Of a stretch of DNA of 64,000 bases, positions 18-57,866 are shown one piece after another. The notes below the pieces were generated by a model. It saw nothing but the letters and a program-made list of their open reading frames with translations. It was not told the DNA's origin and did no database searches. The number at the start of each line of letters is the position of its first letter. The first letter of the stretch is position 1. Source of the stretch: an uncultured Desulfobacterium sp. (lineage in GTDB: Bacteria > Desulfobacterota > DSM-4660 > Desulfatiglandales > Desulfatiglandaceae); contig LT984854.1 in NCBI GenBank assembly GCA_900258555.1, positions 1,905,239 through 1,969,238 on the forward strand, given 5' to 3'. Both the position numbers and the translations under genes were made by a program.

Positions 18-1379
18 TCAATTCAGCCCGTACTTCTTGATCTTCATCCCCAAAGTCTTGCGATTGATCCCTAGGATCTCGGCCGCCATTGTCTTCTTTC
101 CCTGTGTCCTGCGCAGTACAAAACGAATGTATTTCTTTTCCAGTTCTTCAAGGGTTGACGGCTCTTCGGAAAACATCTGAAATTCTCCCTGTCTCTGAGA
201 AATAAAAGATGGCAGATCTCTTGCAGTTATTATATCTGTGTCTTCAAGTATGAGAACCCGCTCCATTGTATGTTCAAGCTCCCTGACATTTCCTGGCCAT
301 GAATATTGCTGTAATATCTCTAGCGCATCCGGTGTTACTTCAGGCACGGGTTTATTAATCTTCTTACAGAAATTTTTTAGAAAATGATCAATTAATAGGG
401 GAATATCATCCTTCCTTTCCCTTAGAGCAGGTATGTGTAAAGGTACAACACTCAGCCTGTAGTAAAGATCCTCTCTGAAGTCCCCGGCCTTTACCGAGTC
501 CTTGAGGCTCTTGTTGGATGCTGAAATGATTCTGATATCAAGCTTGATTTTTTTGAAATCTCCAACCCGCATAAATTCCCGCTCCTGAATTACCCTCAAC
601 AGCTTTGCCTGGATATTCATGCTGAGGTTTCCAACTTCATCAAAGAAGAAGGTTCCGTGATTTGCGAGCTCAAAAAAACCGTGTTTTGTCTGGCCGGCCC
701 CTGTGAATGAGCCCTTTACATGACCGAAAAGCTCACTTTCAAGGAGTGTTTCTACAAGGGAAGAGCAGTCAATTGCAAGGAATTCGTTGTCTTTTCTATT
801 GCTGTATGCATGTATGGCGCGGGCCACAAGCTCTTTGCCTGTGCCGCTTTCGCCCATAATCAGGACGGTGCTGTCAGTGGGAGCGACCTTGAGAATCTTT
901 TCAAATATGGCCTTCATGGGATTACTCTGACCGATAATAAGATTTTCTGAAGAATCAATCTTAAGCCCCATGCGGTCTATCATTGATGTATCGGCAGTGG
1001 CCGGCTGTCTTCCGGTTTTGTTTAATGAGGCCTCCAGATCATCCAGGCGAAAAGGCTTAACAAGATAATCCAGGGCGCCCAGTTTTACACAGTGCACAGC
1101 GGAATCTATGGTCGGGTATCCTGTTATCATTATCACTTCCGTATCAGGATGCCCCATGCGTATCCTCTTAAGGACCTCCATCCCATCCATATCAGGCATC
1201 CTGATATCAAGTAGAACAAGATCAAAGGACTGCTCATTCAGGAAATCCAGTGCCTCCCTCCCATTAGAGGCAAGTCCCGTAGACATACCTCTTTTCTGTA
1301 GCGCGCGGCTGATGCCGTTTCTGACAACCGCTTCATCATCAACAATAAGTACGCGTCTTGTATTCTCTTTATCGCTCAT
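18..1379 (-). CDS. sigma54-dependent response regulator (NtrC/AtoC family)
   Basis: N-terminal receiver (LIVDDE, LLDIRMPDMDG). AAA+ sigma54-activator core (GESGTGKE, GSFTGA, FREDLYYRL). C-terminal Fis-type HTH. Confidence 0.9.
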   Translation of the reverse strand: MSDKENTRRVLIVDDEAVVRNGISRALQKRGMSTGLASNGREALDFLNEQSFDLVLLDIRMPDMDGMEVLKRIRMGHPDTEVIMITGYPTIDSAVHCVKLGALDYLVKPFRLDDLEASLNKTGRQPATADTSMIDRMGLKIDSSENLIIGQSNPMKAIFEKILKVAPTDSTVLIMGESGTGKELVARAIHAYSNRKDNEFLAIDCSSLVETLLESELFGHVKGSFTGAGQTKHGFFELANHGTFFFDEVGNLSMNIQAKLLRVIQEREFMRVGDFKKIKLDIRIISASNKSLKDSVKAGDFREDLYYRLSVVPLHIPALRERKDDIPLLIDHFLKNFCKKINKPVPEVTPDALEILQQYSWPGNVRELEHTMERVLILEDTDIITARDLPSFISQRQGEFQMFSEEPSTLEELEKKYIRFVLRRTQGKKTMAAEILGINRKTLGMKIKKYGLN

Positions 1380-2867
1380 TTATGATTCCATCATAACAGG
1401 AAGAAGGATTTTGAAAGTTGTCCCTTTCCCTTCCACACTTTCCACATCAATGGAGCCATGGTGGGCATCCACTACACCTTTTACAATGGAAAGACCAAGC
1501 CCTGTACCCATAATATCACGGGTCTTAGGGCTCTTTACCCGATAAAACTTTTCAAAGATTTTTGGCAGTTCTTCAGGGGCGATGCCCACCCCTGTATCCT
1601 TTACTTTTATTTCAATGTAATCACCGGCATTCCTCGCCGTGACATTGACATCTCCCCCGTCTGGAGAGTAATTAATGGCATTGCTGATGAGGTTATTAAA
1701 GATTTCTTCCATATTTTTAGGATCGGAGTGAACCGGTTTAAGGTCTTCACAAGAAAAAGTGAGATTGATCCCCTGTTTTTTTGCCCTTGGCTCGAGTAAC
1801 GCAACAGTATCCTCAATGATCTTACGCAGGTCTGTCGGTACAAAATGTCGGACATATTGCCCCGCCTCAATCTTTGCCACATCGAGAAGATCATTAATCA
1901 GTGCAAGCAGTGCGTCAATTTTTTTTACTCCCCTGTTGATAAATTCCGTCTGTTTTTCACCCAAAGGACCGGCCAGGCCCTCAAGGATCACACTGTTTAA
2001 TTGTCTTATTGATACGAGCGGACTGCGAAGCTCATGCGCGACCATATTGACAAAGTCTGATTTCATCTGATCAAGCTGTTTAAATGCACTTATATTCTCA
2101 AGAACGGTTACAGCACCGACAACGCCTGAATCCGGTCCAAACACAGGAGCTGAAATCGCTCTTAAATAATAGTTCCTTGTCTGAATTTCCTGAGAAATAC
2201 ATTCATTATCCGACAGGTCATCATCCAGTATGTTTTTCAGGGTGTTGATCAGGGCCTCGTCCTCGATGAGTTCGTTTGCGGGAAGGGGATTTGAGATCTG
2301 TTGTGTCAAACCCAGCAGCCTCATTATAGCAGGATTTGAAAGGACCACCTCCATGTTTCGGTTGGTCACGATCACGCCATTAGCCATATAATTAATGATG
2401 GTTTTCAACCGGCTTTTTTCAAGATTAAGGTCGTAGAGATTTCGAATATTTTCTTTCTGCAGTTGCCAGGCCTTCTGCTCGAGCCTTCTTTTATCCGCAG
2501 CGCGGTTGATTATCGCAAGAAAATGTTCGATCTGAAACGGTTTTGTTATGAAATCGTATGCCCCCTTTTTCATGCATGCCACTGCCGTGTCAACAGTGCC
2601 GTGTCCGGTAATGATAATTACAGGTACATCCGGATATTTTTCAACCGTGACCTTGAGCACCTCTTCTCCGCCAAGGATGGGCATTTTGAGATCAAGGAGT
2701 AGGATTGATACATTATCTTTTTCAAGGATATCAAGAGCAATCTTGCCGTTTTCCGCTCCAAGGACATCAAACCCTTTGGAGTTCAGCACTCGTGTGCATC
2801 CTTCCCTGATCGCCTTTTCATCATCAGCAACCAGAATCCGAATAATATCTTTCTCATTCATGATCAA
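1380..2867 (-). CDS. hybrid receiver-PAS-histidine kinase
   Basis: REC (ILVADDE, LLDLKMP), PAS-like middle, H-box (VAHELRSPL), N/G boxes (NLISNAINY, DTGVGI, GTGLGLSI). Abuts the downstream regulator start at 1379/1380. Confidence 0.85.
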   Translation of the reverse strand: MIMNEKDIIRILVADDEKAIREGCTRVLNSKGFDVLGAENGKIALDILEKDNVSILLLDLKMPILGGEEVLKVTVEKYPDVPVIIITGHGTVDTAVACMKKGAYDFITKPFQIEHFLAIINRAADKRRLEQKAWQLQKENIRNLYDLNLEKSRLKTIINYMANGVIVTNRNMEVVLSNPAIMRLLGLTQQISNPLPANELIEDEALINTLKNILDDDLSDNECISQEIQTRNYYLRAISAPVFGPDSGVVGAVTVLENISAFKQLDQMKSDFVNMVAHELRSPLVSIRQLNSVILEGLAGPLGEKQTEFINRGVKKIDALLALINDLLDVAKIEAGQYVRHFVPTDLRKIIEDTVALLEPRAKKQGINLTFSCEDLKPVHSDPKNMEEIFNNLISNAINYSPDGGDVNVTARNAGDYIEIKVKDTGVGIAPEELPKIFEKFYRVKSPKTRDIMGTGLGLSIVKGVVDAHHGSIDVESVEGKGTTFKILLPVMMES

Positions 2868-4843
2868 TCCAATCCTATAAATACAGGTTCATCGGTTGAA
2901 AACTCCTGCTCTTTAAATTCAAAGGGCAGTTCTATTGTAAAAACGGTTCCTCCTCCAGGGGGACAGTCAAAGGAAATCTTCCCTCCATGCAGCTTTATAA
3001 TATTTTGAGATATGCTGAGCCCCAGACCGGTGCCTGATCCAACGGGCTTTGTAGTGAAAAAAATCTCAAATATCTTGTCCCTAAGTTCAACCGGAATACC
3101 AGGCCCTGTATCTGAGACCTTTATAACAAAAACAGAATTATCCCGGTTGCATTTTACCTTAATGCCTAAAGTCCCTTTTGATTCCATGGCGTGTGCGGCA
3201 TTTATAAACAGGTTGGTAAAGACCTGTTGCAGTTGCCCCATGTCGCCCAACATTTCGGGCATGCTGGCCTCAATGTCCTTTTCAACTGTTATGTCTTGAA
3301 AAATGGCCTGGTTTATAAGGAGACTAAGACACTTGTTGATAAGGTATTCCAAACTGAAGGAAGAGGTCCTGCCAACAGACTGGCGGCTGAACTCGAGCAG
3401 CTCTGCAACAATTTTCTTGCACCTCAGTGTCTGGTCAATAATTTCCTGAACATCACTAATGCGTTCAGGCTGATTTTTAAGGTCTTCCTTTAGAAGTTCA
3501 GCATAAATAAGCGCTCCGGATAGAGGGTTGTTTATCTCATGGGCTACACCAGCTGCCATTCTCCCTACTGAAGCGATCTTTTCTGACTGCACCAGTTGCA
3601 GATGTGCATCTTCGAGGTCCCTGCGCATCTTGAATATCTCTCGCATGTCAGTGAAAACCCCTACGCTCCCGATCTCTTTTCCATCTATCGTGATAATAGA
3701 GGCAGACAGTGTAACAGGTATCTCTTCACCGTTTTTGGTCTTAACGCTCATAGCTGTCGGATTAAGTCTGCCTACAGGACCATACTCACTGCTTCGCATT
3801 TTCTGCATGTTTTCCTTAGCCACATCCATGTCATAGAAAGTACTCAGATGACCTCTTTTTATAATGTCTTCTGCAGAATGACCCGTCAACCTTTCCATCC
3901 CCTCGTTAAAAATCAAGACATTGCCTTTTGTGTCCACAACGACAATGCCGTCCACAGTGCTTTGAATCACATTTTCAAAAAATTTATTGGATTTCTCTAC
4001 TTCCCTTTCAAGCTTGGCCCTTTCAGTAACATCCCTCGACACCTCCAATATTTGAATAAGCCTTCCGTTGTCATTAAAAATTGGGGCTATAGTTATTACC
4101 TCAAAGCGCGTTTCTCCATATTCGTCCTTAAACTCCCTCAGTGTACTGATGCTTCCCTTATGTTCAAGATCTGATATACTGTCTTCCAGGTGGCATATCC
4201 GGCCTTCCTCCTTACAGGATTTTTCCAGATGATACCTTAACTGATAGCAATGATTGCCGGTAATAACCTTATCACCCAGCTTGAATTCATTTAAAAATGT
4301 CTTATTGACCATATCAACAGTCTTATCCAGGTTGACCACCATGATGCGATATGGAAGTGAGTCCAGGATCATCTGCATCTTTTTTTTGCTATTGAGTTCA
4401 TAGCTCTTCCGTTCTTTTTCAAGTTCGGTCTTTTCCACCTCGGTCTGAAGCAGTTCCCATATTACAGGTGCTGCCACATGGTCCAGGATAGCCACTCCGG
4501 GCGACCTCGAGTTATAAAGCTGATCCCTTATCTTTTCCGAGCCTGTGATCTCGATAAGCATGTTTATATTTTTGAGAGAAAAAAGATCTCTGAAATCGCT
4601 GGTGGTATAAAGCCCTATTTCTCTGGCATAAACAATGCCGGGTGCCTGCTGATTTTCATCAGACACTCCCAGAATTTTCATGTTCATCCTTGCCAGACGA
4701 TAACTGTCAAGGATTTCGAGCAGATTACGGCATGCCTTTCCGCCGCCGACAATAGCAACATTGAGGGGCACACCTGCCTCCCTGCCCCTGATTATCTCAA
4801 GCGCACTGTTAATGTCTGCGCCGTTTAAGCCATCGTTTTTCAT
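2864..4843 (-). CDS. sensor histidine kinase with Rossmann-like N-terminal domain and PAS domains
   Basis: ORF 2864..4888. I prefer the ATG at c4843 (MKNDGLNG), which abuts the stop of the upstream small ORF. N-terminal VAIVGGGKACRNL motif, Cys patch (HCYQLRYHLEKSCKEEGRICH), PAS, H-box (VAHEINNPL), HATPase (DTGPGIP, GTGLGLSI). Confidence 0.8.
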   Translation of the reverse strand: MKNDGLNGADINSALEIIRGREAGVPLNVAIVGGGKACRNLLEILDSYRLARMNMKILGVSDENQQAPGIVYAREIGLYTTSDFRDLFSLKNINMLIEITGSEKIRDQLYNSRSPGVAILDHVAAPVIWELLQTEVEKTELEKERKSYELNSKKKMQMILDSLPYRIMVVNLDKTVDMVNKTFLNEFKLGDKVITGNHCYQLRYHLEKSCKEEGRICHLEDSISDLEHKGSISTLREFKDEYGETRFEVITIAPIFNDNGRLIQILEVSRDVTERAKLEREVEKSNKFFENVIQSTVDGIVVVDTKGNVLIFNEGMERLTGHSAEDIIKRGHLSTFYDMDVAKENMQKMRSSEYGPVGRLNPTAMSVKTKNGEEIPVTLSASIITIDGKEIGSVGVFTDMREIFKMRRDLEDAHLQLVQSEKIASVGRMAAGVAHEINNPLSGALIYAELLKEDLKNQPERISDVQEIIDQTLRCKKIVAELLEFSRQSVGRTSSFSLEYLINKCLSLLINQAIFQDITVEKDIEASMPEMLGDMGQLQQVFTNLFINAAHAMESKGTLGIKVKCNRDNSVFVIKVSDTGPGIPVELRDKIFEIFFTTKPVGSGTGLGLSISQNIIKLHGGKISFDCPPGGGTVFTIELPFEFKEQEFSTDEPVFIGLD

Positions 4844-4844
4844 A

Positions 4845-5141
4845 TCAATTTTTTCCAATACGTTCCGCCACGCGCCGTTCCAGTTCAAGGATTATGGAAT
4901 TCAGGGCAGGGCCCTCTTTTACAGGACCTGAGTTATTCCAACCGGCTGTTAGTGCGGAATCCTTTTTTTCTCTGAATTCATTAAGACTGGAGGCCATTGT
5001 CTCCCAAAGAAATAATTTTTGCAGGATATGCCGTTCCGCTGCAGTCAGATCGTTGTCCGTGTCAAATGATTTTCCGTTTTTAATTGTAAAGAGCATAATC
5101 GCGACAGCAATGAAGGTGTAGATCACAGAATATAATGACAT
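4845..5141 (-). CDS. small hypothetical membrane protein (98 aa)
   Basis: One N-terminal hydrophobic helix (LYSVIYTFIAVAIMLFTI). Its stop lies one nt before the kinase start. No family recognised. Confidence 0.4.
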   Translation of the reverse strand: MSLYSVIYTFIAVAIMLFTIKNGKSFDTDNDLTAAERHILQKLFLWETMASSLNEFREKKDSALTAGWNNSGPVKEGPALNSIILELERRVAERIGKN

Positions 5142-5391: not shown

Positions 5392-6315
5392 TTAGACTAC
5401 GGGCCTTGGAAGGACTCCTGCCATCTTGGCAATTTCGGGCACCCTGTGTTCCCATTCTATGGCCATGAGATGAACGCCTGCCACCCCTTCCATCTCCTTA
5501 AACTCCTGGATCTGTTCCACAGCGATCTTGATGCCTTCCTCAGCAGCCTTCCCCTTTCCGGCACCCTTAACCCGTTCAATCAATTCGTCAGGGACATCCA
5601 TGCCCGGTACTGAGCCTGCCATGTATTTCGCCATACCGACACTCTTCAATGGTGTTACACCAGCCAGGATATAACACTTTTCTGTAAGGCCCATGTCCAC
5701 CGCCCTCTTCATAAACTCCCTGAACCTGTCCATATTGTAGATGCACTGGGTTTGAATAAAATCCGCACCCGCCGCTATCTTTTTTGCAAGCCTAAGCACC
5801 CTCCACTCATAAGGCTCGGCAAAGGGATTGGCGGCAGCGCCGATAAACATCTTTGGTGCCTCATCCAGTTTATTGCCGCTTAAAAAGATGCCCTCGTCAC
5901 GCATCTGCTTTACCATGCCTATCAGCTGTATAGAGTCTATGTCGAATACCGACTTTGCCATAGGGTGATCGCCAAAACTCTGATGGTCACCTGAAAGACA
6001 GAGCATATTCTTGATACCGTGGGTGCTTGCACCCAAGATATCGCTCTGCATGGCGAGCCTGTTACGATCGCGGCATACCATCTGGAAATTGGGCTCAAGC
6101 CCCTCCTGGATCAATATTAAAGAGGCGGCCCAGCTTGACATGCGGACCACTGCGGTTTGATTATCCGTGATGTTTACGGCATCAACATTACCCTTTAAAA
6201 AAGCGGCCTTTTTCCTCACCTCTTCTGCATTGGCTCCCCTGGGAGGACCCAGCTCGCCTGTAAATGCGAAGTGACCGGCGGACAATACCTTTTCCAGATT
6301 GCTTTCTGATTTCAT
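5392..6315 (-). CDS. metF: methylenetetrahydrofolate reductase, acetogen/Wood-Ljungdahl type
   Basis: 307 aa with typical MetF N-terminus (FAFTGELGPPRG..., NITDNQTAVVRMSS). GAGGAAG RBS upstream. Follows metV. Confidence 0.9.
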   Translation of the reverse strand: MKSESNLEKVLSAGHFAFTGELGPPRGANAEEVRKKAAFLKGNVDAVNITDNQTAVVRMSSWAASLILIQEGLEPNFQMVCRDRNRLAMQSDILGASTHGIKNMLCLSGDHQSFGDHPMAKSVFDIDSIQLIGMVKQMRDEGIFLSGNKLDEAPKMFIGAAANPFAEPYEWRVLRLAKKIAAGADFIQTQCIYNMDRFREFMKRAVDMGLTEKCYILAGVTPLKSVGMAKYMAGSVPGMDVPDELIERVKGAGKGKAAEEGIKIAVEQIQEFKEMEGVAGVHLMAIEWEHRVPEIAKMAGVLPRPVV

Positions 6316-6347
6316 TTTAACTTCCTCTCAGATGATAATGGCTGATC

Positions 6348-7028
6348 CTATTTTTCTGCACTATTCTCTGAAGTCTTATACCCCGGCTGGATAACCGTCC
6401 TTGGCTTCTGGTTTTGCCAATCCTGGACAGGGGTAATTTTCAATATGTTGTCAAGCCTGTTCTGTTTTGACAGACGTTCATAAATCATATACCAGGCACA
6501 GGGCTGATCTTTACTGATTTCACAACTGCCTTTGTTGGTTCCTCCGCACGGTCCGTTATAAAGGCCCTTGGCGCACATGGTCACAGGGCAGATGCCTGCG
6601 GTCAGCCCAAGCACGCAACTGCTGCATGATCGACACCTCTCCTCATACCAGCCTACGTCCTGATTGACGCCTATGAAGGTGGTGTCCACACCGGGGAACA
6701 CCGGCTTTTCCGGGTATCTTTCAGCCAGGAACTGGATGCCGGCGCCACAGGCCAGGGACAAAACCGCATCATAATCTCCCACCATTGAATCCAATGCCTC
6801 AAGGTATTCCCGGTCGCACTGCCTCTCAATGGTGATAGCGCCAAGTTCAATTGGGTTATCATCCAGCCTTCTTGCCATATCGAGCTCGGCGTTTAAAACA
6901 GCGACTTCCTTTTCACCTCCAGCAAGGCAAACCGCCACGCAGGTTCCGCAACCCGCAGTAAGAACCTTCTTATAGTCCTTCAGGAAATCTTTTATTTCAT
7001 CAAAGGGTTTTCTTTTGGCAACTATCAT
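6348..7028 (-). CDS. metV: methylene-THF reductase Cys-rich partner subunit
   Basis: 226 aa with Cys-rich motifs (GCGTCVAVC, CRSCSSCVLGLTAGICPVTMCAKGLYNGPCGG). Lies directly upstream of metF. Confidence 0.8.
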   Translation of the reverse strand: MIVAKRKPFDEIKDFLKDYKKVLTAGCGTCVAVCLAGGEKEVAVLNAELDMARRLDDNPIELGAITIERQCDREYLEALDSMVGDYDAVLSLACGAGIQFLAERYPEKPVFPGVDTTFIGVNQDVGWYEERCRSCSSCVLGLTAGICPVTMCAKGLYNGPCGGTNKGSCEISKDQPCAWYMIYERLSKQNRLDNILKITPVQDWQNQKPRTVIQPGYKTSENSAEK

Positions 7029-7075: not shown

Positions 7076-7489
7076 TTAATGTTGCTTCAAAGGATTTGGC
7101 CCGAGCGCCTTGATGTTTTCCGCCATCTCCCGCGCATAGGCTGCAAAGGTTGGGCCTTCACCGGAAGAAAGGTTATACATCCTTACCCTGTCTCCTTCAA
7201 TCCCTATTTCTTCAAGAAGCCTCCTGACGTGATTGACCCTTTCACGCGCCCTCAGGTTTCCTTCATTATAATGGCACGCCCCTTCCAGGCAGCCCACCGC
7301 ATAAACTCCATCCGCGCCCTTCTGGATAGCCCTTAAAAGATGCATCACATCAACCTTTCCTGTGCAAGGCACCCGGATTATCTTAATGTTGGAAGGATAG
7401 TCAAGTCGCATGGAACCTGCCAGGTCCGCGGCAGAGTATCCTCAGAATTCACAGCAAAATGCTATGATTGTCGGTTCAAAATCCGTCAT
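7076..7489 (-). CDS. mvhD: MvhD-like electron-transfer protein, selenoprotein (Sec at codon 16)
   Basis: ORF 7076..7411 extends in frame through TGA c(7442..7444) to ATG c(7487..7489): [32 protein letters not shown]... Its start overlaps the hdrA stop (TGATG). Later motif VGCLEGACHY. Confidence 0.8.
7417..7444 (-). promoter_or_regulatory. UGA(Sec) plus candidate SECIS hairpin of mvhD-1
   Basis: RNA UGA-GGAUACU-CUGCC-GCGGACCU-GGCAG. The 5-6-bp stem starts 7 nt after the UGA, closer than usual for a bacterial SECIS. Confidence 0.4.
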
Positions 7490-10400
7490 CACATACCCCC
7501 TGCCAGCAATGCATCAATTTTGCATGCCAGTTGATCATCTTCATAAAAGCTCAGTTTAATCGTCTGCCTTGGGCATATGCTTGCGCAGCTCCCACACCCG
7601 TGACACAATGCGTCATCAATCTCTATAATCCCCAACTCCGTGTTAAACATCGGGACACCGAAAGGACAGGTACGGACACATGTCAGACATTTTACGCAGT
7701 GTTCTGTATCCACCTTGGCTGTGATCGCCGATAGTTTTATCTCCGGCTTTGCGAGGAATGTCGTAGCCCTTGACGCAGCAGCCTGGGATTGGCTGATTGC
7801 CTCTGAGATAAGCTTGGGCCCATGCGCTGTTCCACACAGAAAGATTCCCTCGCCAGGCATGTCAACAGGCCGCAGCTTTACGTGCGCCTCAATAAAATAG
7901 CCCTCCTGGTTACGGTTTAGCTTCATGATGCCGCTTAGCTCGTCAGTATCCGCCGCCCTCATCCCAGCACTCAATGCCAGGAGGTCAGCTCGGATCGTAA
8001 TATCCCGTTGAAGTATATGATCCTTTACGGATACAAGTATTCCGGCGGCAGATGACTTAACATCCGGAGGCGCATCATTTTCAAATCTGATAAAGATAAC
8101 TCCCCTTTCCCTGGCCTCTTTGTAAAAATCCTCAAGCAATCCATATGTTCTAATATCCCGGTAGAGCACAAAGACCTGGGCGTCCGGATTTTGCCTCTTT
8201 ATATGTAAGGCGTTTTTTACGGCGTTCTGGCAGCATATGCGGGAGCATTCCTGCATCTCATCATTCCTGGACCCCACACACTGGATCATCACAACCGTTT
8301 TGAGGTCTGATGCGCCCTTGTCTTCCAACCTGTCCGCCAGTTCAACCTGGGTGACAACCCTGTCATCCTCGCCATAGAGATATTCTTTCGGGTGATATTC
8401 TGTCGCACCGGTAGCCACAATGATGACACCGTGTTTTATTGTACGCTTTTCTTTCTTCGATCCGATTTCCACATCGGTGGAAAAGTTGCCTTTATACCCA
8501 CCAAAACCAGTGACCCTGGCCTCGGTAATGACCTCCACCTTTTCATGGCCTTTAACCTGGCCGATCAGTTTATCCAGATATGGCCGGATGTCTCCGCCCT
8601 CAATGGTATGGTGCAGACTTCTTGAAAAGCCCCCCAGTTGGGCGTCTTTTTCCACCAGAACAACATCAAATCCCTGCTTTCCCAAGTTCAGCGCGGCGTT
8701 CATGCCTGCAACTCCGCCCCCTATCACCAGGGCCTTTTGTGTTACGGATATCACCTTTTGTGCAAGAGGTTTCAGTGTTCCGGCCCTAGCAACGGCCATT
8801 CTTACCAGGTCCTTGGCTTTTTGAGTGGCCAAATCCGGCGCCTTGGAATGTATCCAGGAGTTCTGGTTCCTGATATTGGCCATTTCGAACAGGTATCTGT
8901 TCAGGCCGCACGCCTCCAATGTTTCCATAAACATCGGTTCATGGGTCTTGGGACTGCATGAGGCGACCACCACACGATTAAGATTATGCTCTTTAATCTT
9001 TTCCTTTATTTTTTCCTGTGTGTCCTGGGAACAGGTAAACAGGTTTGAATCGGTAAATACAACATTTGGAAGTCTCCCAGCGTATTCCTGCACTGAAGGG
9101 ACATCAACAATTCCTCCTATGTTGATGCCGCAGTTACACACAAAGACACCGATCCTTGGTTCCTGATCACTTACATCCTTTTGTTCAGGGATTGTAACGG
9201 TCTTGGTCTCAGTTCCTCTCGCCTCTGAAAGATCAGCTCCTGCAAGACATGCTGCGGCACTGGCCTCTGTAACTGAGCCGGGTATGTCTTTCGGCCCCTG
9301 AAACACCCCGCATGTATATATACCAGGCCTGGATGTCTCAACAGGGGCGAACGGATCGGTTGCAGCAAAATTATAGTTGTTGAGTTCAACATTAAGTCTG
9401 TTTGCAAGCTCCACAGCACTGTCGGGTATTGTTAAACCAACTGACAAGACCACCATGGAAAAGATTTCTTCTTTTCTCTCGCCGCTTTCATCAACATATT
9501 TGACAATAAGGTCACCTGTCTCTGGGACTTCACTTACCGTATGGACACGGGCCTTGACATAACGTACACCTTCTTTGTCCCTCGCCCTGAGGAAATACTT
9601 TTCATAATCTTTGCCAAAGGTCCTCATATCCATGTTAAATATAACAGCGTCAAGATCTCCATGTATATGCTCCTTTGCAATCATCGCCTCTTTTGTGGCA
9701 TACATGCAGCATACGGAAGAGCAATAACCATTGCCGCATCTGTTGATATCCCTTGAGCCCACGCACTGAAGCCATGCAATACTCTTGGGCTCTTCCCTGT
9801 CAAGAGGCCGCATGACGTGACCGAAGTATGGGCCGCCCGCAGAAAGTATCCTTTCAAAGCCCTCACTGGTCACCACGTTGGGGAATTTTCCATAGCCCAG
9901 AAAATCAAGATTTGACGGATCATATCCTTTTGTTCCTGGAGAAAGGATAACAGAGCCCACTGTAACCTTTGTTTCCTCTTCCTTGTCGTCGTACTTGACC
10001 GCCTTTGCAAGACAGGTGTTTTCGCACAGGCCGCATCCGATACAGGCTTCGGTATCAATGGCATAGGCAAGGGGCACAGCCTGGGCATATTCAATATAGG
10101 TAGCCCTTCTGTCATTCATGCCCTTGTTGATCTCGTTGACAGCGGCCACAGGACAACGCCTGGCGCAGTCACCGCATCCGGTGCATTTTACCGGATCAAT
10201 GTAGCGGGGGTGTTTTGTGAGGGTGACGGAAAAATTTCCCGGCTCACCTTCAATGGATTTTACTTCACTGTTTGTTATCAGGTTTATGTTCAGATGCCGG
10301 CCGACCTCGACCAGTTTGGGTGAGATAACTCACATGGTGCAGTCATTGGTCGGAAATGTCTTGTCCAGCCTGGCCATCAGGCCGCCTATGGTAGGAGATT

Positions 10401-10518
10401 TTTCTACCAGATATACGTTGTAATCCGAATTAGCGAGATCCAGTGATGCCTGCATGCCGGCAATGCCGGCGCCGACAACCATTACTGACCCACTTTTATT
10501 TGTTGTAGCTGATCCCAT
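7489..10518 (-). CDS. hdrA: HdrA-like FAD/FeS oxidoreductase, selenoprotein, about 1009 aa
   Basis: ORFs 10330..10524 and 7489..10149 share a frame. Translation across TGA c(10330..10332) is stop-free: [21 protein letters not shown]...[12 protein letters not shown]...[10 protein letters not shown]. Two Rossmann motifs ([18 protein letters not shown]) and several 4Fe-4S Cys motifs. Start set at the ATG after the AGGGGAG RBS. Confidence 0.85.
10297..10332 (-). promoter_or_regulatory. UGA(Sec) plus candidate SECIS hairpin of hdrA-1
   Basis: RNA CUGGUCG-AGGU-CGGCCGG: 7-bp stem with 2 G-U pairs and a GG-containing loop, starting 15 nt after the UGA. The 21-nt core is identical to the one in hdrA-2. 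Confidence 0.6.
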
Positions 10519-10628
10519 TATCACTCCCCTAAATAATTGACGATATTTGATTGATTGATGATTTAAGATTTTTTCTCAGTCCGGGATCTTGCCTGTGTCA
10601 ATCAATGCGCATTCGTCATTCTTCAATC

Positions 10629-11378
10629 TTAAAGCGCTGCAAACACCGGTTTGCTGTCTTCCATGCCAGTGAATGCCACCATGCTTGTCCTTTCCATATC
10701 CGCTAGGAGGTAGGAAATCCGAAGTACATCTACCCCGGTTTTTTTACTTATTTGCCTCACGTTGGTGCAGTCCTGCTTAATAGCAAGATAAATCAAATTC
10801 TTGTGATATTCCCGTTCAAGCATGTCATAGAGAACGGATTCATACTTTTTAACTTCCCACTTCCTGCCGTAGACATCACCTTTGGTGGTGATTTTGACTT
10901 CTTTACCGACCAGCCATCGCAGGGTTTCACCCTCAAGGGTCCTTTCAGCCGCTGAAAGCTGCATATCAAACATCTCTGAATCGAACCTTCCCAGACTCTT
11001 AATGGAATCGTTGACTTCAGTCGCAATCTGTACAAAACGCTGCGCCTCAGCGGATGATACCCAGGCAAAATGGAGTCTTTCTCTGCCGATGCCTGCGATA
11101 TCTAGAAGCTTCTGTGTCAAAAGGAGCTTTTTTTCAGCCTGTACATTACCCTCCAGGTAATGGCAGTCGCCGAAATGTCACCCGCCCACCATGACGCCGT
11201 CACATCCACCTTTGAGAGCCTTGACAATGAAGACCGGGTCAATACGACCGGAACACATCACCCGGATTGTTCTAAGGCTGGATGGGTATTGCAACCTGGA
11301 GACTCCTGCCAGGTCAGCGCCTGCATATGCACACCAGTTGCAAAGAAAAGCAACAATCTTTGGTTCAAAATCTGTCAT
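10629..11378 (-). CDS. mvhD: MvhD-like protein with C-terminal extension, selenoprotein (Sec at codon 67), about 249 aa
   Basis: ORFs 11178..11378 and 10629..11120 are in frame across TGA c(11178..11180): ...DGVMVGG-U-HFGDCHYLEGNVQAEKKLLLTQKLLD... N-terminus MTDFEPKIVAFLCNWCAYAGADLAG. Confidence 0.8.
11144..11180 (-). promoter_or_regulatory. UGA(Sec) plus candidate SECIS hairpin of mvhD-2
   Basis: RNA CAUUACC-UGGAG-GGUAAUG: perfect 7-bp stem with a GG-containing loop, starting 15 nt after the UGA. Confidence 0.6.
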
Positions 11379-11426: not shown

Positions 11427-14400
11427 TCAGGCCACCGCACTTATAGCCGCTTCAATCTGAGCATGCCGGAAATGGAGCATGTCAATAGCTTTTTGCGGAC
11501 AGGATGAAGCGCACAAACCACATCCCTTGCAAGATGCAGGGATATTTTTAGCACGTTTTCCTTTGCCCTCAACTTCCTCCAACACTATAGCGCCGAATGA
11601 ACATATCTCAGCACAAAGACCACATCCGATGCATTTTTCCACATCCACACGTGATGCAAGGGGAGAGACCTGAATAGATGCCTTTGAAAGCACTGTTGCC
11701 GCCCTGCCTGCTGCGGCAAGGGCCTGTTCAATGCTTTCATCAACGGGTTTCGGATAGTGAGCCAGGCCGCACAGGAATATACCATCAGAGGCAAAATCAA
11801 CCGGCCTCAGTTTTGCGTGGGCCTCCATAAAAAATTTCTCTTCGTTCAGAGGAAGCTTATATGATGATGCAAGATGTTCATTCTCAGAGGGTTCAATAGC
11901 GGTCTTGAGGTTGATCATATCAGCCTTTATCAACAAATTCTGTTGAAGTATAGGATCAAACACTTCCACTACAAGACCTTTTGCACCTTCTGTTACCTTT
12001 GGTTTATTTTCCCGTGTATATCGGATAAAGATAACGCCTTTTTCACGGGCCTTTTTATAAAGGATTTCTCTCTCTCCAAAGGTTCTCATATCCCTGTAGA
12101 GAATAAATACGTTGGCCTCGGGTTTATCTTCCTTTATGGAGATTGCCTGCTGAACTGATGATGTGCAGCAGATCCTTGAGCAATATGGCCTTTGATCATC
12201 CCTTGATCCGACACATTGTATAAATACGATATTATCGGCCTTTTTAAGTTTGACCGGGTCTTTTTCGAGTTCATGCCAGAGTGTTACATTTGAATTTTTT
12301 CCATACAGATATTCATCTGTACCTGCGGCCTGGCCGCCTGTGGCGATAATGACCGCACCGTGTTTGACGGTTTTTGTGATATCTTTACTCCTTATTTCTG
12401 TCTCAAAATTGCCGACAAACCCGAAGGCATTAACAACTTCTGCATCCAATATCATGTCAATGCCCGGATGTTTTCTCACCCTGTCGGCCAGTTCGGCAAC
12501 AAACCCTTTGATATCCTCTCCACCCCAAGACCTTGAAAGGTCCTTAGCTGCACCTCCTGGTTCAGATGACTTATCTACAATTGTTACAGGAAAGCCCTGA
12601 TCTGCAAGACTGACGGCAGCCGTCATTCCGGCAACACCAGCTCCTATAACAAGCGCGGATTTGTTGACATCAACGGATAAATCCGGGATGGGCTCCAGCA
12701 GGGCAACGCGGGCAACCGCCATTCGCACCAAATCCTTGGCCTTTTCCGTTGCCTTTTCCTTTTCATCGGAATGACACCAGGTGCATTGGTTCCTGATGTT
12801 AGACATTTCGAACAGATAAGGATTTAGACCTGCATTACGAATGGTCTCCTGGAAAAGGGGCTCGTGTGTCCTCGGCGTACAAGCGGCCACGACAATACGA
12901 TTAAGATTATGTTCCTTGATCACCTCTACCATCTTTTCCTGGGTATCCTGGCTGCATGTAAATAGATTGTCCTCTACGTATACAACATCCGGCAGGTTTT
13001 TGGCATATGCGGCAATTGCAGGGACATCGGCAATACCGCCGATATTGACACCGCAGTTACATACAAAAACGCCCACACGGGGCTTTTGACCCTGAACATC
13101 ATTCTCCTGTGGAAATGCCTTTTCCTTAACCAGAGTTCCCCTGGCAGGTGCCAGACCGACGCCGGCGGAACAAGCCGCAGCACTTGCCTCCATTACAGAC
13201 TGGGGTATGTCTTTGCAGCCCTGGAGCACACCTGCCACATAAATGCCTTTACGAGATGTGGAAACAGGGGACAGACTGCTCGTATTGATAAAGTTATGCT
13301 CGTTAAGCTCAACATCCAGTCTTTTTGCCAAGTCAATGGCCGAGGAGGCCGGTTCCATACCGACAGAAAGAACAACCATATCGAACGTCTCGACTTGAAT
13401 ATTACCATTTTCATCTGCATACCTTAAGGAAACGTCCTTGTTTTCAGGGTCTTCGTCAATTGTATGAATTCTGCAACGGATAAACCTTACTCCCTGCTCC
13501 TTCTTTGCGCGTTCATAATACTTTTCAAAGTCCTTTCCGTGTGTCCGCATGTCCATAAAAAAGATAGCAGTATCCAGGTCATAATCTGCATGTTCTTTGG
13601 AGATAACCGCCTCTTTGATGGCATACATACAGCAGACAGAAGAACAATAAGCATTGTCGCACTGATTGATATCCCGCGATCCAATGCACTGCAGCCAGGC
13701 AATCTTTTTAGGCTCTTTCTTGTCGGATGGCCGCACAAGATGACCCTGGTTCGGGCCTGTTGCGCTCAAGAGGCGTTCATATTCCATGCTGGTGACAACA
13801 TTTGCAAATTTTGTATACTGGTATGTCGCAAAATTATCGGGCTTAAAAGGCTCAAAGCCGGGTGCCAATATCACGGAGCCCACATTGATTGAAATGTCCT
13901 CTGTTTTCTGGGAGTGTGTTTCAAGTGTCACTGCCTTGGCCTTGCAGGCCTTGACGCACTCGTAGCACTCACAACAACCACCGCAATTAAGACAGCGTTC
14001 GGCCTCTTCCTTTGCCGATTTTTCATCTGCTGTGAGGTTGACTTCCGCAAAGCTTTTATGCCTTTTGCCAAGGGACAGGGTCGGCGCCTTTAGGCGGTGT
14101 TTCAGTGGTTCATCATCACGGATTTCAACCCAATTTGTACCCATTGGGGGTTCATCCTGCCATTCTTGAGGTAACTGTTCACCCCGAAGGTATTTTGCAA
14201 TGTACTTGGCGGCCCTTTTACCTCCATCCACCGCCTCTATTACTGTAGCAGGCCCGGTAATAACATCACCACCTGCAAATATTCCAGGCGCATTAGTCTG
14301 CAATGTTTCAGGGTTTACTACGAGGAGTTTCCATTTAGAGACCTCTATACCTGATTGATCACCAATAAAGGCAAGATCCGGCTCCTGCCCTATGGCAGGA

Positions 14401-15857
14401 ATTATATGCTCCGCCTCTATTGTGAATTCGGAACCTTCTATGGGGATCGGTTTGCGCCTACCGCTGGTATCCGGTTCTGTCAAACGGGTTTTGATGCACT
14501 CAATGCCGGTCACCTTTCCATTTTTATTAACAACCCTTACAGGGGCCGCCAGAAAATGGATCTTTACCCCTTCTTTTTCCGCCTCTTCAATTTCCTCAGG
14601 TTCGGCCAGCATCTCTGCTTTAGAGCGGCGGTAAACGATATGAGACTCATCCGCACCCAGTCGAAGGGCTACTCGCGCACCGTCCAGGGCAGAATGGCCG
14701 CCACCAATAATCACGGCCTTTCCCTTGAGTTCTTTCAGGTCTCCAAGATGCACCTCCCGAAGAAAAGATGTAACATCACTGACACCCTTTGACTCATCTC
14801 CCTGAATGTGAAGTCTTAATCCCTTCCATGCGCCGGCTCCTATAAAAACGGCCTTTGCACCGTGTTGCTGCAAGTCCCTGATGGTAAGATCCTTGCCTAT
14901 GGCTGTATTGGTATGGATTTCTATGCCGTATCTTTTAAGGTTATTGATTTCCGCATCCAGCACAGAACGGGGCAGGCGATGTTCGGGAATTCCGTAACGC
15001 ATCATTCCGCCTGCCTCAGGCATCGCCTCATAAACGCTTACCTGATATCCCTCCAACGCAAGAAAATAGGCGGCGGTAAGTCCTGCCGGACCTGAGCCTA
15101 TTATCGCCACCTTTTCATCTTTTTTAATTATTTGTGGTACTGGTATGTCATTAAGGTCCGTATGATCAGCGGCAACCCGTTTAAGTTCTCTTATGGAAAT
15201 CGGCTCGTCTATTTCGAGACGGCGGCAACTCTTTTCGCAGGCATGGGGGCAGACACGGCCAAGGGTGCCGGGAAACGGCAGATCACGCATTATGATTTCA
15301 ATCGCCTCCCGAAATTTTCCCTGTTTCACCATCTGAACGTAGCCCTGGACATTCAGATTGGCCGGACAAGCCATTCTGCATGGCGCCGTGTCCCGTTTGT
15401 CAATAGCGAATGCTCCTGGAATAGCCTGTGCGTAAGGCTTATAGGCCGCCTTTCGCCCAACCAGTTCCATATCATATTCACTGGGCCTGACTACCGGGCA
15501 AACCTCTGCACAGTCCCCACAGGCAGTGCACGCTCCACTGTCTATAAAACGCGGTGCCTTTTGAATAGTTACTTGAAAGTTGCCCTCTTCCCCAGTAATA
15601 TTTTCAACGTTTGAGCAGGTGTGAAGTTGTATATTTGTATGCCGGCCGACCTCGACCAGCTTAGGAGAGATAATTCACATTGCACAGTCGTTTGTGGGAA
15701 AGGTCTTGTCAAGCTGCGACATCACCCCGCCGATGGCCGGAGATTTTTCTACCAGATGTACGAAAAAACCCGAATCAGCAAGATCAAGGGCCGCCTGCAT
15801 TCCGGCAATGCCGCCACCAACAACCATGACAGACCCGGTTGGTTTATCTTGAACCAT
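11427..15857 (-). CDS. hdrA: HdrA-like oxidoreductase with inserted GltD/NfnB-like NAD(P)H module, selenoprotein, about 1476 aa
   Basis: ORFs 15675..15884 and 11427..15470 are in frame across TGA c(15675..15677): [21 protein letters not shown]...CTACGDCAEVCP...MELVGRK. GltD-type motifs: CPANLNVQGY, GRVCPHACEKSCRR, IIGSGPAGLTAAYFLA, IIGGGHSALDGA, IFAGGDV. HdrA motifs then resume. Start at the ATG after the CAGGAGA RBS; c15884 is the alternative. Confidence 0.85.
15642..15677 (-). promoter_or_regulatory. UGA(Sec) plus candidate SECIS hairpin of hdrA-2
   Basis: Same CUGGUCG-AGGU-CGGCCGG hairpin, 15 nt after the UGA. Synonymous differences from hdrA-1 stop exactly where the hairpin begins. Confidence 0.6.
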
Positions 15858-16208
15858 ATGTATTGTCTCCTGCTTGTAAGGCATTTAAATTTTAAGAGGA
15901 ATTATTTTCCGTTATGAGATCGAAATGGCAAAAAACCATTGGATGAAAACACGGGCGGGTAATTTTGACTCACATGAGGCATCTTTCCCCTACATCCTCT
16001 TTTCGGCCGTATTACATGCCATAATAAATACTTGGATGTCAAGGAAAAATATGAAAAGAAGAAGATACAGGAATAAATGACCCATTCCAAGTATGAGTAT
16101 TAAGTCCAATTTTCCCCTTTAATTATCCGAGGAAGTCTATAACTGACTCCCCACTATCTACAGTTACCATGACATGCATAATAATTTACTGATATTATTA
16201 GGCAATAA

Positions 16209-16756: not shown

Positions 16757-18106
16757 TTATGCTTCTCCTTTTTTGATTTCATACTTTTCAATCTTGTTAT
16801 AAAGCGTCTGTCGGTCAATATCCAATTTCCGGGCTGCCCGACTGATATTCCAATCACAATCATTCAAGATGTTTAAGATATGCATTTTTTCCATCAGCTT
16901 TAATGAGTCGGGAAATGCCCGAGGTGCAGGTTTCTGATGTGAAAAGGGAAGATCATCGGGCAAAATCTCCTGGCCCCTGCCGATGACCAAGGCCCTTTCA
17001 ATGATATTCTCAAGCTCCCTCACATTACCAGGCCAGTCATAATCCATTAATAAGTTCAGAGCAGACGGGGCAATTTTTGATGTTTCCCGATTCATCTCCA
17101 GGCAATACTTGCGGATAAATGCCTTTACCAGTAAAGGGATGTCTTCTTTTCTTTCTCTTAAAGGAGGGATATGTATAGAAATAACATTCAGGCGATAATA
17201 GAGGTCCTCACGAAAACGATTTTCTCGAATTGCCTTTAAGAGATCCCTATTTGTCGCAGCAATTACCCTTACATCCACCTTGATCGTGGCCTCTCCGCCC
17301 AACCGGGCGAATTCCTTTTGTTGCAAGACCCGTAAAAGATCCACTTGTGTCTTTAGACTGATATCACCGATCTCATCCAGAAAGATGGTGCCCTTATCAG
17401 CCATTTCAAAACGTCCTCGTTTTGCATGATCAGCCCCTGTAAAAGCCCCCTTTTCGTATCCGAACAGCTCGCTTTCCAGGAGGGAATCAGGCAATGCGCC
17501 GCAACTGACTGCAACGAAGGGCATATAACAACGGCTGCTGTTCCCATGAATGGCCTGGGCCACCAGTTCTTTGCCTGTGCCGCTCTCCCCTGTGATAAGC
17601 ACTGTCGAATCTGTAGGCGCCACACGGCCTATCAAATCGAAGATCTCCTGCATAGCGTCACTTTTCCCAATAATTTCATCAAACTGATATTTCTCTTCCA
17701 GCTTTTTTCTCAGCAGCAGGTTCTCCATTACCAATTCTTTATGCTCAACTATCTTTTTGATATGGATTTCTATTTCATCAGGATCAAAGGGTTTTACCAG
17801 ATAATCGAAGGCTCCTTCCTTCATTGCCAGGACAGCAGTATCTACGGTAGCATAGGCTGTCATTATAATGATTTCAGACTCAGGACTTACGGACCTGAGT
17901 TTCATAAGCGCCTCAAGACCATCCATCCCGGGCATTTTTAGGTCGAGAAAAATCACATCAAAGGCCTTTTCAAGGGCCATGGCAACGGCCCTTTCCCCGC
18001 TTGGTGCCACAGCAACAGCATAACCGTCCTCCATTAACCAATCCTTCAGACTTTCCCGCATGGCCGCTTCATCGTCAACAACTAGAATTGAGGGTTTTTG
18101 TGCCAT
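16757..18106 (-). CDS. sigma54-dependent response regulator
   Basis: REC (ILVVDDE, FLDLKMPGMDG), AAA+ core (GESGTGKE, GAFTGA, FREDLYYRL), C-terminal HTH. Confidence 0.9.
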   Translation of the reverse strand: MAQKPSILVVDDEAAMRESLKDWLMEDGYAVAVAPSGERAVAMALEKAFDVIFLDLKMPGMDGLEALMKLRSVSPESEIIIMTAYATVDTAVLAMKEGAFDYLVKPFDPDEIEIHIKKIVEHKELVMENLLLRKKLEEKYQFDEIIGKSDAMQEIFDLIGRVAPTDSTVLITGESGTGKELVAQAIHGNSSRCYMPFVAVSCGALPDSLLESELFGYEKGAFTGADHAKRGRFEMADKGTIFLDEIGDISLKTQVDLLRVLQQKEFARLGGEATIKVDVRVIAATNRDLLKAIRENRFREDLYYRLNVISIHIPPLRERKEDIPLLVKAFIRKYCLEMNRETSKIAPSALNLLMDYDWPGNVRELENIIERALVIGRGQEILPDDLPFSHQKPAPRAFPDSLKLMEKMHILNILNDCDWNISRAARKLDIDRQTLYNKIEKYEIKKGEA

Positions 18107-18131
18107 CAGTTATTCCTCCGCTTCTTCAAAA

Positions 18132-20594: not shown

Positions 20595-20877
20595 TCTTTC
20601 TCCTTTAAACCGGTGAAGCACTAATTGACTTTCAAAACGCACCCCGAAAATTCCGGATTCTTAACCCACTAATATAAGCCGGATTGATTTTAAAGATTTT
20701 TTGGTTTTTTGCAAGGAAGGTTTCTTATCGAATACCACGAGGCCAGAGAGGGTTGATAACAAGAAACATATTAAAGAGGCAAGCGTGCCGGGGTCAACAA
20801 ATCCGATTAGGTCGCAAACGTGAACCGGCTTTTGATATGGTGCTTTAAGCAGGAACTATAAGACTTGATTCTATTTT

Positions 20878-57770: not shown

Positions 57771-57866
57771 TGGCGGAGAGGGTGGGATTCGAACCCACGT
57801 GCCCCGCTATTAACGGGACAAGTCGATTTCGAGTCGACCCCGTTACGACCACTTCGGTACCTCTCC
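57771..57866 (-). tRNA. tRNA-Ser (anticodon CGA), class II with long variable arm, CCA encoded
   Basis: GGAGAGG acceptor pairs with CCTCTCC. Anticodon stem GTCGA/TCGAC with loop CTCGAAA. T-arm GTGGG-TTCGAAT-CCCAC. Discriminator G plus CCA. Confidence 0.9.

Follow-up and report, generated by a model that had tools for sequence, protein, structure and literature searches.

Two paralogous genes of the MvhD family, each with one in-frame UGA codon, lie in the 64-kb stretch of DNA analysed here (64,000 nucleotides of contig LT984854.1 from an uncultured Desulfobacterium sp.; hereafter the window). The two UGAs fall in different conserved cysteine columns of this [2Fe-2S] protein. Our explanation, in which we have considerable confidence, is that they belong to an operon of a Desulfobacterales bacterium with four selenocysteine (Sec) codons, that the two MvhD Sec sites are inherited ones, and that the operon encodes an electron-bifurcating or electron-confurcating module. 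Sequence comparison makes it plausible that the two sites were inherited separately in two old MvhD subfamilies, which stand side by side here.

Selenocysteine codons and their insertion signals

The strings given for the two proteins in the initial annotation, AFCCEF-UGA-GYSAADLAG ... VGCLEGACHY for MvhD-1 and MTDFEPKIVAFLCNWCAYAGADLAG / AFLCNWCAYAGADLAG ... VGG-UGA-HFGDCHY for MvhD-2, are exact, and the interval to which it referred, 7076-11378, runs from the stop of MvhD-1 to the start of MvhD-2. In the minus-strand translation, the UGA of MvhD-1 (7444..7442) is codon 16, within the motif C13-E-F-U16, and that of MvhD-2 (11180..11178) is codon 67. A MAFFT alignment (A1) with four solved MvhD/VhuD chains and additional HMMER alignments place the two codons in different columns; the alignment with the solved chains is free of gaps through residues 1-100. 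Column 16 is the second Cys of CNWC, column 67 is the first Cys of GCHxGDCHY, and both are Cys in every all-Cys homologue aligned. The positions C13, C/U16, C42, C/U67 and C72 are all kept in both paralogues. The proposal that Sec occupies two different conserved Cys columns of MvhD thus holds, the UGA columns being neither identical nor off a conserved Cys. MvhD-2 also retains Cys16, His68 and Asp71, and MvhD-1 has Leu68 and Ala71. An extra Cys occurs at residue 59 of MvhD-2 (window 11202-11204; GGCDGV, compared with GADGV in the family). The L001 orthologue has Cys there as well (EGCDGV), and other relatives have Ser or Ala.

Both proteins fit the MvhD/VhuD/FlpD family (PF02662) by profile, by similarity to solved members and by their five Cys positions. 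In phmmer searches of the PDB, MvhD-1 is matched over residues 1-136 with E-values of 5e-39 to 5e-35, the top match being VhuD of Methanococcus maripaludis (9sfi_K), and MvhD-2 is matched over residues 1-131, best by 5odc_D (E 9e-46). The 111-aa product called for MvhD-1 has a PF02662 annotation, and the tail of MvhD-2 has an FlpD Pfam match. MvhD-2 carries a C-terminal extension of ~115 aa that is winged-helix-like in relatives. The extension of MvhD-2 itself has no significant helix-turn-helix (HTH) match in Pfam. That of the relative P0193 gives weak or borderline scores, 25.2 bits for HTH_5 (cut-off 22) and 25.8 bits for MarR_2 (cut-off 27), and PF12802/PF01022 are among the precomputed matches of MvhD-2 relatives.

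The Sec codons of the two partner flavoproteins, HdrA and HdrL, and the selenocysteine insertion sequence (SECIS) predicted for each of the four sites are as follows; the Sec codon of HdrL is hidden in open reading frame (ORF) lists.

7413..7429, minus strand: apical hairpin of the site-1 SECIS, GCGGACCUGGCAGGUUC, with stem GGACCU/AGGUUC and loop GGC
11144..11162, minus strand: hairpin of the site-2 SECIS, CAUUACCUGGAGGGUAAUG, 18 nt after the UGA, coding H-Y-L-E-G-N
10332..10330, minus strand: UGA of HdrA, Sec in the motif TNDC-T-M-U, a C-x-x-U redox pair
10297..10314, minus strand: SECIS of HdrA, CUGGUCGAGGUCGGCCGG
15677..15675, minus strand: UGA of HdrL, Sec in the motif TNDC-A-M-U
15642..15659, minus strand: SECIS of HdrL, the same CUGGUCGAGGUCGGCCGG element as in HdrA

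Folding places the hairpins of the operon 17-22 nt downstream of their UGAs, with a G-rich apical loop. At site 1, the hairpin begins 17 nt after the UGA and codes A-A-D-L-A-G-S. Its sequence GCGGACCUGGCAGGUUC is invariant in 80 distinct MvhD-1-type sequences, and the third-codon entropy is 0 bits at codons +5 to +9 versus 1.0-1.9 bits on either side. Pairing of the apical helix holds in 99.6% of cells, and a lower helix contributes one covarying pair, a modest signal. At site 2, the sequence CAUUACCUGGARGGUAAU is invariant in 17 sequences save at the loop position, and in these 17 the third positions of codons +6, +7, +8, +10 and +11 do not vary either. The reciprocal regions serve as controls: the ADLAG codons vary by 0.3-1.9 bits in MvhD-2 copies with Cys16, and the region after Cys67 varies by 0.9-2.0 bits in the 80 MvhD-1 copies. 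In L073, the lone Cys16 orthologue, the site-1 hairpin is destroyed. The site-2 stem shows a compensatory change among the 116 metagenomic site-2 Sec genes in the matches listed, ~60 of which combine Tyr74 UAC with Gly77 GGU and ~50 Phe74 UUC with GGA. The CUGGUCGAGGUCGGCCGG element of HdrA and HdrL does not vary among 70 Sec forms but does among 8 Cys forms.

Recurrence of the codons was scored in a scan of one genome per species, in which the MvhD-1 subfamily was represented by 80 loci (63-87% identity), most of them from Desulfobacterales. One of the two patterns of the scan (GCLEGxCH) demanded Cys at site 2, so that MvhD-1-type genes with Sec at site 2 could in part escape it. UGA is present at site 1 in 78 of the 79 scorable MvhD-1-type copies and at site 2 in 17/17 scorable copies of the upstream long MvhD-2 type. 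Because the codons recur in these orthologues, each with a nucleotide-invariant hairpin behind it, they are not due to chance. Judged by this conservation, both MvhD UGAs are real Sec codons. The UGA is likewise kept in most upstream HdrA copies, and the HdrL motif NDC[AS]M-UGA is conserved in other loci. As the UGAs of hdrA and hdrL add to the two of the mvhD genes, the operon has four Sec codons.

It is very improbable that the UGAs are true stops, in split genes or pseudogenes, or that UGA is reassigned to another amino acid. Gene callers do split both mvhD genes (66 + 163 aa, and 111 aa), and some Joint Genome Institute (JGI) calls mis-translate the site-2 UGA as Trp (P0121 and P0134, VSGWHIGDCHY). 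However, the frame and a high similarity run on across every UGA, the residue that UGA replaces is always an invariant Cys, and a conserved SECIS hairpin stands behind each codon. Furthermore, TGA is the ordinary stop for 17 of the 47 long ORFs of the window, hdrA among them. This stop usage, together with the conserved hairpins, led to the rejection of the pseudogene, split-gene and reassignment readings.

Ligand and accessory columns

In the supercomplex of Methanothermobacter marburgensis, MvhD Cys16 and HdrA Cys202/Cys205 have been described as "conserved additional cysteine residues" (PMC13580544). Cys16 sits between the MvhD cluster and the flavin adenine dinucleotide (FAD), and MvhD His68 and Asp71 contact an unidentified ligand held by HdrA Cys202/Cys205 (PMC13580544). 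The cluster-adjacent Cys corresponds to Sec19 in BamF (bioRxiv 10.64898/2026.04.10.717634). An explicit list of MvhD ligands is absent from PMC6019823, PMC5861303, PMC13518236 and PMC12350162.

Conservation of the columns was scored on 160 representatives, taken from 50% clustering and from the retrieved loci. Cys or Sec is kept at column 13 in 128/130, at column 42 in 159/160, and at columns 67 and 72 in 160/160 each. At column 16, 14 of 133 representatives have another residue (Ser, Thr, Ala, Gly or Leu). From this conservation and the role of Cys16 in PMC13580544, site 1 is taken to be accessory and dispensable and site 2 a ligand position. The initial annotation had allowed for either a cluster ligand or a neighbouring redox-active residue, and the outcome is one of each. 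Column 16, the Sec column of MvhD-1, is on these grounds the neighbour, an accessory, non-ligand and dispensable redox residue by the [2Fe-2S] cluster. Column 67, the Sec column of MvhD-2, is by elimination and conservation one of four cluster ligands, and the ligand set of the one [2Fe-2S] cluster is deduced in the same way as C13/C42/C67/C72.

Origin and distribution of the two sites

A neighbour-joining tree was built from residues 27-135 of 160 sequences, with 200-300 bootstraps. The Sec clade of MvhD-2 groups with the Cys forms P0128, which is nested inside it, and P0137 (90% bootstrap), and the whole falls in an otherwise all-Cys long-form group (74% bootstrap). The tree favours a gain of Sec67 in the long-form lineage followed by occasional reversal. 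The Sec16 genes of the MvhD-1 type are interspersed with the Cys forms P0003, P0009, P0045 and L073, and their SECIS is identical; for the bacterial Sec16 site, one origin with several losses is favoured. It is plausible that the two bacterial sites acquired Sec separately, because of the Cys-only outgroups of the MvhD-2 clade and the tree pattern. The claim that Cys was exchanged for Sec independently in each copy is therefore retained only in part. It is plausible for two old events in two deeply diverged subfamilies, given the 90% bootstrap for the Cys-only outgroups, but these were not events of this operon, the sites being inherited across dozens of species.

An alternative history starts from a double-Sec, VhuD-like ancestor in which each lineage reverted a different site to Cys. 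VhuD does have Sec at both columns, and it is the best-scoring match of MvhD-1 in both the PDB and NCBIfam. The closest sequences outside the MvhD-2 Sec clade nevertheless have Cys at both sites (P0137, P0140, P0142, P0193, P0201, P0224 and P0228; 90% and 74% bootstrap), and VhuD has a split position in the tree, placed with methanogen MvhD at 52% and with the MvhD-1 group at 40%. Double-Sec metagenome genes with a bacterial-type in-frame SECIS exist (L175 and L133), as do Sec-to-Cys reversals (L073, and P0128 within the Sec clade), and hdrA/frhD operons have been proposed to move horizontally between Deltaproteobacteria and archaea (PMC13188914). The archaeal SECIS, however, is an element of the 3'-untranslated region (UTR), and the bacterial in-frame SECIS had to arise anew for each site anyway. 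Taken together, descent from a double-Sec ancestor appears improbable. A special kinship of MvhD-1 with archaeal VhuD was also dropped, in view of the neighbour-joining bootstrap of 40% versus 52%.

The two sites occur together well beyond the window. The tandem hdrL(U)-mvhD2(U67)-hdrA(U)-mvhD1(U16)-metVF is found in 16 species loci, and the synteny mvhD1-metV-metF is essentially universal in those of the 80 loci that are long enough to show it. Species without the tandem have a single HdrL-like gene directly before MvhD-1-MetV-MetF, with a second, divergent MetF-like gene (32-38% identity) ahead of it; examples of this second gene lie around position 4300-4700 in L027-L031, L037, L039 and L044. 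Almost all of the closest MvhD-1 homologues (85-93% identity) are products of ~114 aa that begin at Met27, as expected when a gene caller halts at UGA16, and the MvhD-2 homologues in the protein database are C-terminal fragments of 163-165 aa. In P0001, a metagenome protein from ENA with 82% identity to MvhD-1, column 16 is Arg (FCCDY-R-GYSAADLAG). The Arg codon CGA is one transition from UGA, and the residue may be explained by a sequencing error, by variation or by a pseudogene.

Site-2 Sec was covered in metagenomes with a targeted pattern, G-UGA-[LM]-E-G-x-C...G-N. Short MvhDs of the LEG type with UGA at site 2 are present in at least 120 metagenome stretches, and all listed ones are real. 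At least 115 of these proteins (within loci L083-L202) have Cys at site 1. Often, an all-Cys paralogue of the GCP[IL]GNCHH type lies ~5 kb away. Among the matches listed are two double-Sec MvhDs, in L133 (3065-3472) and L175 (657-1049). Both have the site-1 hairpin in frame; that of site 2 is in frame in L175 and looks degenerate in L133. By sequence, the two look like bacterial-type double-Sec MvhDs, a form so far described only for archaeal VhuD. All four states of the two columns, CC, UC, CU and UU, therefore exist, and the choice of site is not exclusive to a subfamily. The reciprocal placement pointed out in the initial annotation is confirmed as a UC/CU tandem, both here and in the 16 loci, but it is not exclusive, as the LEG-type site-2 Sec proteins and the double-Sec forms demonstrate. 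In seven loci (L054, L059, L060, L062, L065, L071 and L079), a Cys HdrA accompanies an MvhD-1 with Sec16, from which it follows that the HdrA and MvhD Sec sites are not strictly coupled. L073 is all-Cys.

The placement of Sec may reflect functional tuning of each HdrA-MvhD pair, as the initial annotation suggested. The column might instead have been set by the codability of the SECIS and by neutral Sec/Cys turnover under a variable selenium supply, which we consider possible but doubtful. The site-2 Sec forms nearly always read [YF]-L-E/D-G-N, which are the hairpin codons, whereas MvhD-1 has Y-N-E-G-N; likewise, the site-1 Sec forms read A-A-D-L-A-G-S versus G-A-D-L-A-G-V in MvhD-2. The occurrence of all four states in the family and of Cys HdrA beside Sec MvhD-1 in seven loci would also fit such a turnover. 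Yet a SECIS-capable context is just one or two amino acid changes away, so that codability is a weak barrier, and each state is very stable in its clade (78/79 and 17/17 species at 63-87% identity). This near-absolute conservation within clades argues for selection for Sec at each particular site.

Operon layout, proposed function and related systems

The operon comprises the following genes, with gene content assigned from Pfam and NCBIfam profile matches.

11427..15884, minus strand: hdrL, HdrA with an inserted GltD-like NAD(P)H/FAD module, start at 15884 or 15857
10629..11378, minus strand: mvhD-2, 249 aa, long MvhD of the "G-U-H-x-G-D-C-H-Y" type
7489..10518, minus strand: hdrA, HdrA-type flavoprotein
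7076..7489, minus strand: mvhD-1, 137 aa, short MvhD of the "GCLEGxCH" type
6348..7028, minus strand: metV-like gene, DUF5981 (Pfam match)
5392..6315, minus strand: metF, methylenetetrahydrofolate reductase (MTHFR; Pfam match)

The gene order is thus hdrL-mvhD2-hdrA-mvhD1-metV-metF. Each mvhD lies directly downstream of an hdrA-type gene, and this type of order (hdrL followed by mvhD2, hdrA by mvhD1) is also seen in the 80 loci. Downstream of mvhD-1, the metV-like gene and metF (5392..7028) form a methylene-tetrahydrofolate reductase module. The hdrA product has NCBIfam HdrA2 and HdrA matches under equivalog cut-offs. The ATG of mvhD-1 overlaps the stop of hdrA as TGATG (window 7487-7491), which suggests translational coupling of the two genes. 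Since the stop of hdrA is itself TGA, that UGA must not be read as Sec.

In the public gene sets examined, MvhD-1, MvhD-2, HdrA and HdrL are all mis-called as fragments. MvhD-1 is called as a 111-aa product that lacks the initial 26 residues, and MvhD-2 appears as two pieces of 66 and 163 aa. In ORF lists, HdrL is represented by a 1347-aa tail, the N-terminal ~140 residues being lost. The upstream extension of HdrL amounts to ~140 more codons (window 15471-15884, minus strand), and its start is likely at 15857, an ATG preceded by AGGAGA, or at 15884.

The most probable product of the operon is a methylene-/methyl-tetrahydrofolate oxidoreductase of the Wood-Ljungdahl pathway that is linked to NAD(P)H and uses flavin-based electron bifurcation or confurcation. 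Conservation indicates that the four in-frame UGAs of the operon are decoded as Sec through SelB-type SECIS hairpins within the coding sequence, 17-22 nt downstream, and each MvhD is predicted to bind one [2Fe-2S] cluster via columns 13, 42, 67 and 72. If the methanogen Mvh/Vhu/Elp-Hdr complexes and MetFV-HdrABC-MvhD of Moorella are a guide, the MvhD cluster would relay single electrons to the bifurcating FAD of the HdrA-type partner. The current candidates for carrying electrons across the gap of 22-28 Å are Cys16, as the accessory residue, and the Cys/Sec pair of HdrA; methanogen structures suggest a route over the accessory column 16 residue and the HdrA C-x-x-C/U pair. In MvhD-1, selenium would then sit on a relay residue facing the C-x-x-U of HdrA, and in MvhD-2 it would serve as a cluster ligand beside His68 and Asp71. 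Sec16 could act as a more nucleophilic relay of lower pKa with selenenylsulfide chemistry, and Sec67 could make the cluster selenolate-ligated and so alter its potential or its lability. If the choice of site is adaptive, selenium at the relay residue of MvhD-1 and at the cluster ligand of MvhD-2 might mark two mechanistically distinct exit routes from the cluster, a suggestion that we make only tentatively.

Several points weigh against this account. Neither selA, selB, selC and selD nor a tRNA-Sec is found in the 64-kb window, and the Sec machinery is for that reason assumed from the lineage. A scan of 5-17 kb against Rfam at E<=10 gave no SECIS family and chance matches only. The ligand role of column 67 comes from elimination and conservation, and the pairing of each MvhD with HdrA or HdrL is read only from gene order. 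Both the reaction catalysed in the cell and the direction in which electrons flow are taken from the MetVF synteny and the literature, no HdrBC genes being adjacent to the operon. In the window as a whole, ARAGORN finds one tRNA, a 96-nt tRNA-Ser(CGA) at 57771-57866.

Neither the two Sec positions nor the presence of Sec in bacterial MvhDs and in HdrA/HdrL is new. That VhuD has Sec at two positions some 50 codons apart has long been described (PMC4989117), and the MvhD/VhuD family is listed as CxxU with 2 Sec (PMC13188914). The operon is accordingly no new kind of system, MvhD/VhuD being an already listed selenoprotein family with two Sec positions. No paper was found in the literature that states the Sec column of bacterial MvhD paralogues or a conserved UC + CU tandem. 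If our account is true, the operon offers a clean and widely conserved case of selenium at a ligand versus an adjacent relay thiol of one [2Fe-2S] cluster type, with both selenium positions beside HdrA-type bifurcating flavoproteins that bear their own Cys-Sec pair. Should the choice of site be adaptive, selenolate-ligated [2Fe-2S] clusters would be widespread in anaerobic bacteria. Cultivable bacteria for testing Sec at each position are Desulfonema magnum (4be13, L031) and Desulfopila aestuarii (DSM 18488, L024), from the retrieved loci, and Desulfobacterium, from the literature.

VhuD of Methanococcus (M. maripaludis, PDB 9sfi/9t1s chain K; M. voltae; M. jannaschii) shares the PF02662 fold and the same five Cys/Sec columns. 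In 9sfi_K, X at chain residues 14 and 65 corresponds to columns 16 and 67, 51 codons apart, and the VhuD gene adjoins a Sec-containing hdrA with C-x-x-U, as in this operon. In VhuD, however, both Sec residues belong to one polypeptide and depend on one archaeal SECIS in the 3'-UTR, whereas here each paralogue has one Sec and its own in-frame SECIS. VhuD is also part of a [NiFeSe] hydrogenase-Hdr complex, unlike the proteins encoded here: no hydrogenase genes (vhuAGU) are adjacent, the neighbours being hdrL, hdrA, metV, metF and regulators. The scores against the VhuD equivalog NF045873 (cut-off 215 bits) are 132.8 for the MvhD-1 fragment and 135 for the MvhD-2-type P0128. The top PDB matches of MvhD-2 are the MvhDs of Methanothermococcus thermolithotrophicus, Methanothermobacter marburgensis and Methanospirillum hungatei (5odc, 9sw2, 7bkb). 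Methanogen MvhD shares with MvhD-2 the CNWC...GCHxGDCHY motifs, His68, Asp71 and the accessory Cys16 (PMC13580544). It differs in being all-Cys and ~140 aa long, without a C-terminal extension, and in having HdrABC of methanogenesis as its partner.

BamF belongs to the Geobacter metallireducens class II benzoyl-CoA reductase. This bacterial MvhD-type adaptor is >100 aa longer than classical MvhD, has a winged HTH, and is a selenoprotein beside a Sec-containing HdrA-like subunit (bioRxiv 10.64898/2026.04.10.717634). MvhD-2 is likewise a long form, but its winged-HTH assignment is weakly supported. BamF, compared by description, has Sec19 at accessory site 1, while MvhD-2 combines Cys16 with Sec67, and the genes bamBCDEGHI are absent from the operon. 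Desulfobacterium autotrophicum HRM2, also compared by description, belongs to the same taxonomic order and has the same HdrL (a GltD-HdrA fusion) and HdrA types, each followed by mvhD (PMC2702500). Four mvhD genes, hdrA1/2 and hdrL1/3 of this species are annotated as Sec-containing, and PMC2702500 and its supplements do not state which MvhD column bears the Sec. The methylene-tetrahydrofolate reductase complex MetFV-HdrABC-MvhD of Moorella thermoacetica has the same hdrA-mvhD/metV-metF linkage (PMC5736913, PMC5861303). That complex includes HdrBC, whereas the present operon lacks HdrBC and has in addition a second pair, HdrL-MvhD, with a GltD-like NAD(P)H module.

The 324-nt stretch upstream of hdrL (15885-16208) contains no sigma-54 promoter consensus, and matches across the window are at chance level. 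Sigma-54-type response regulators and PAS histidine kinases flank the operon on both sides (window 18-4888 and 16757-20642).

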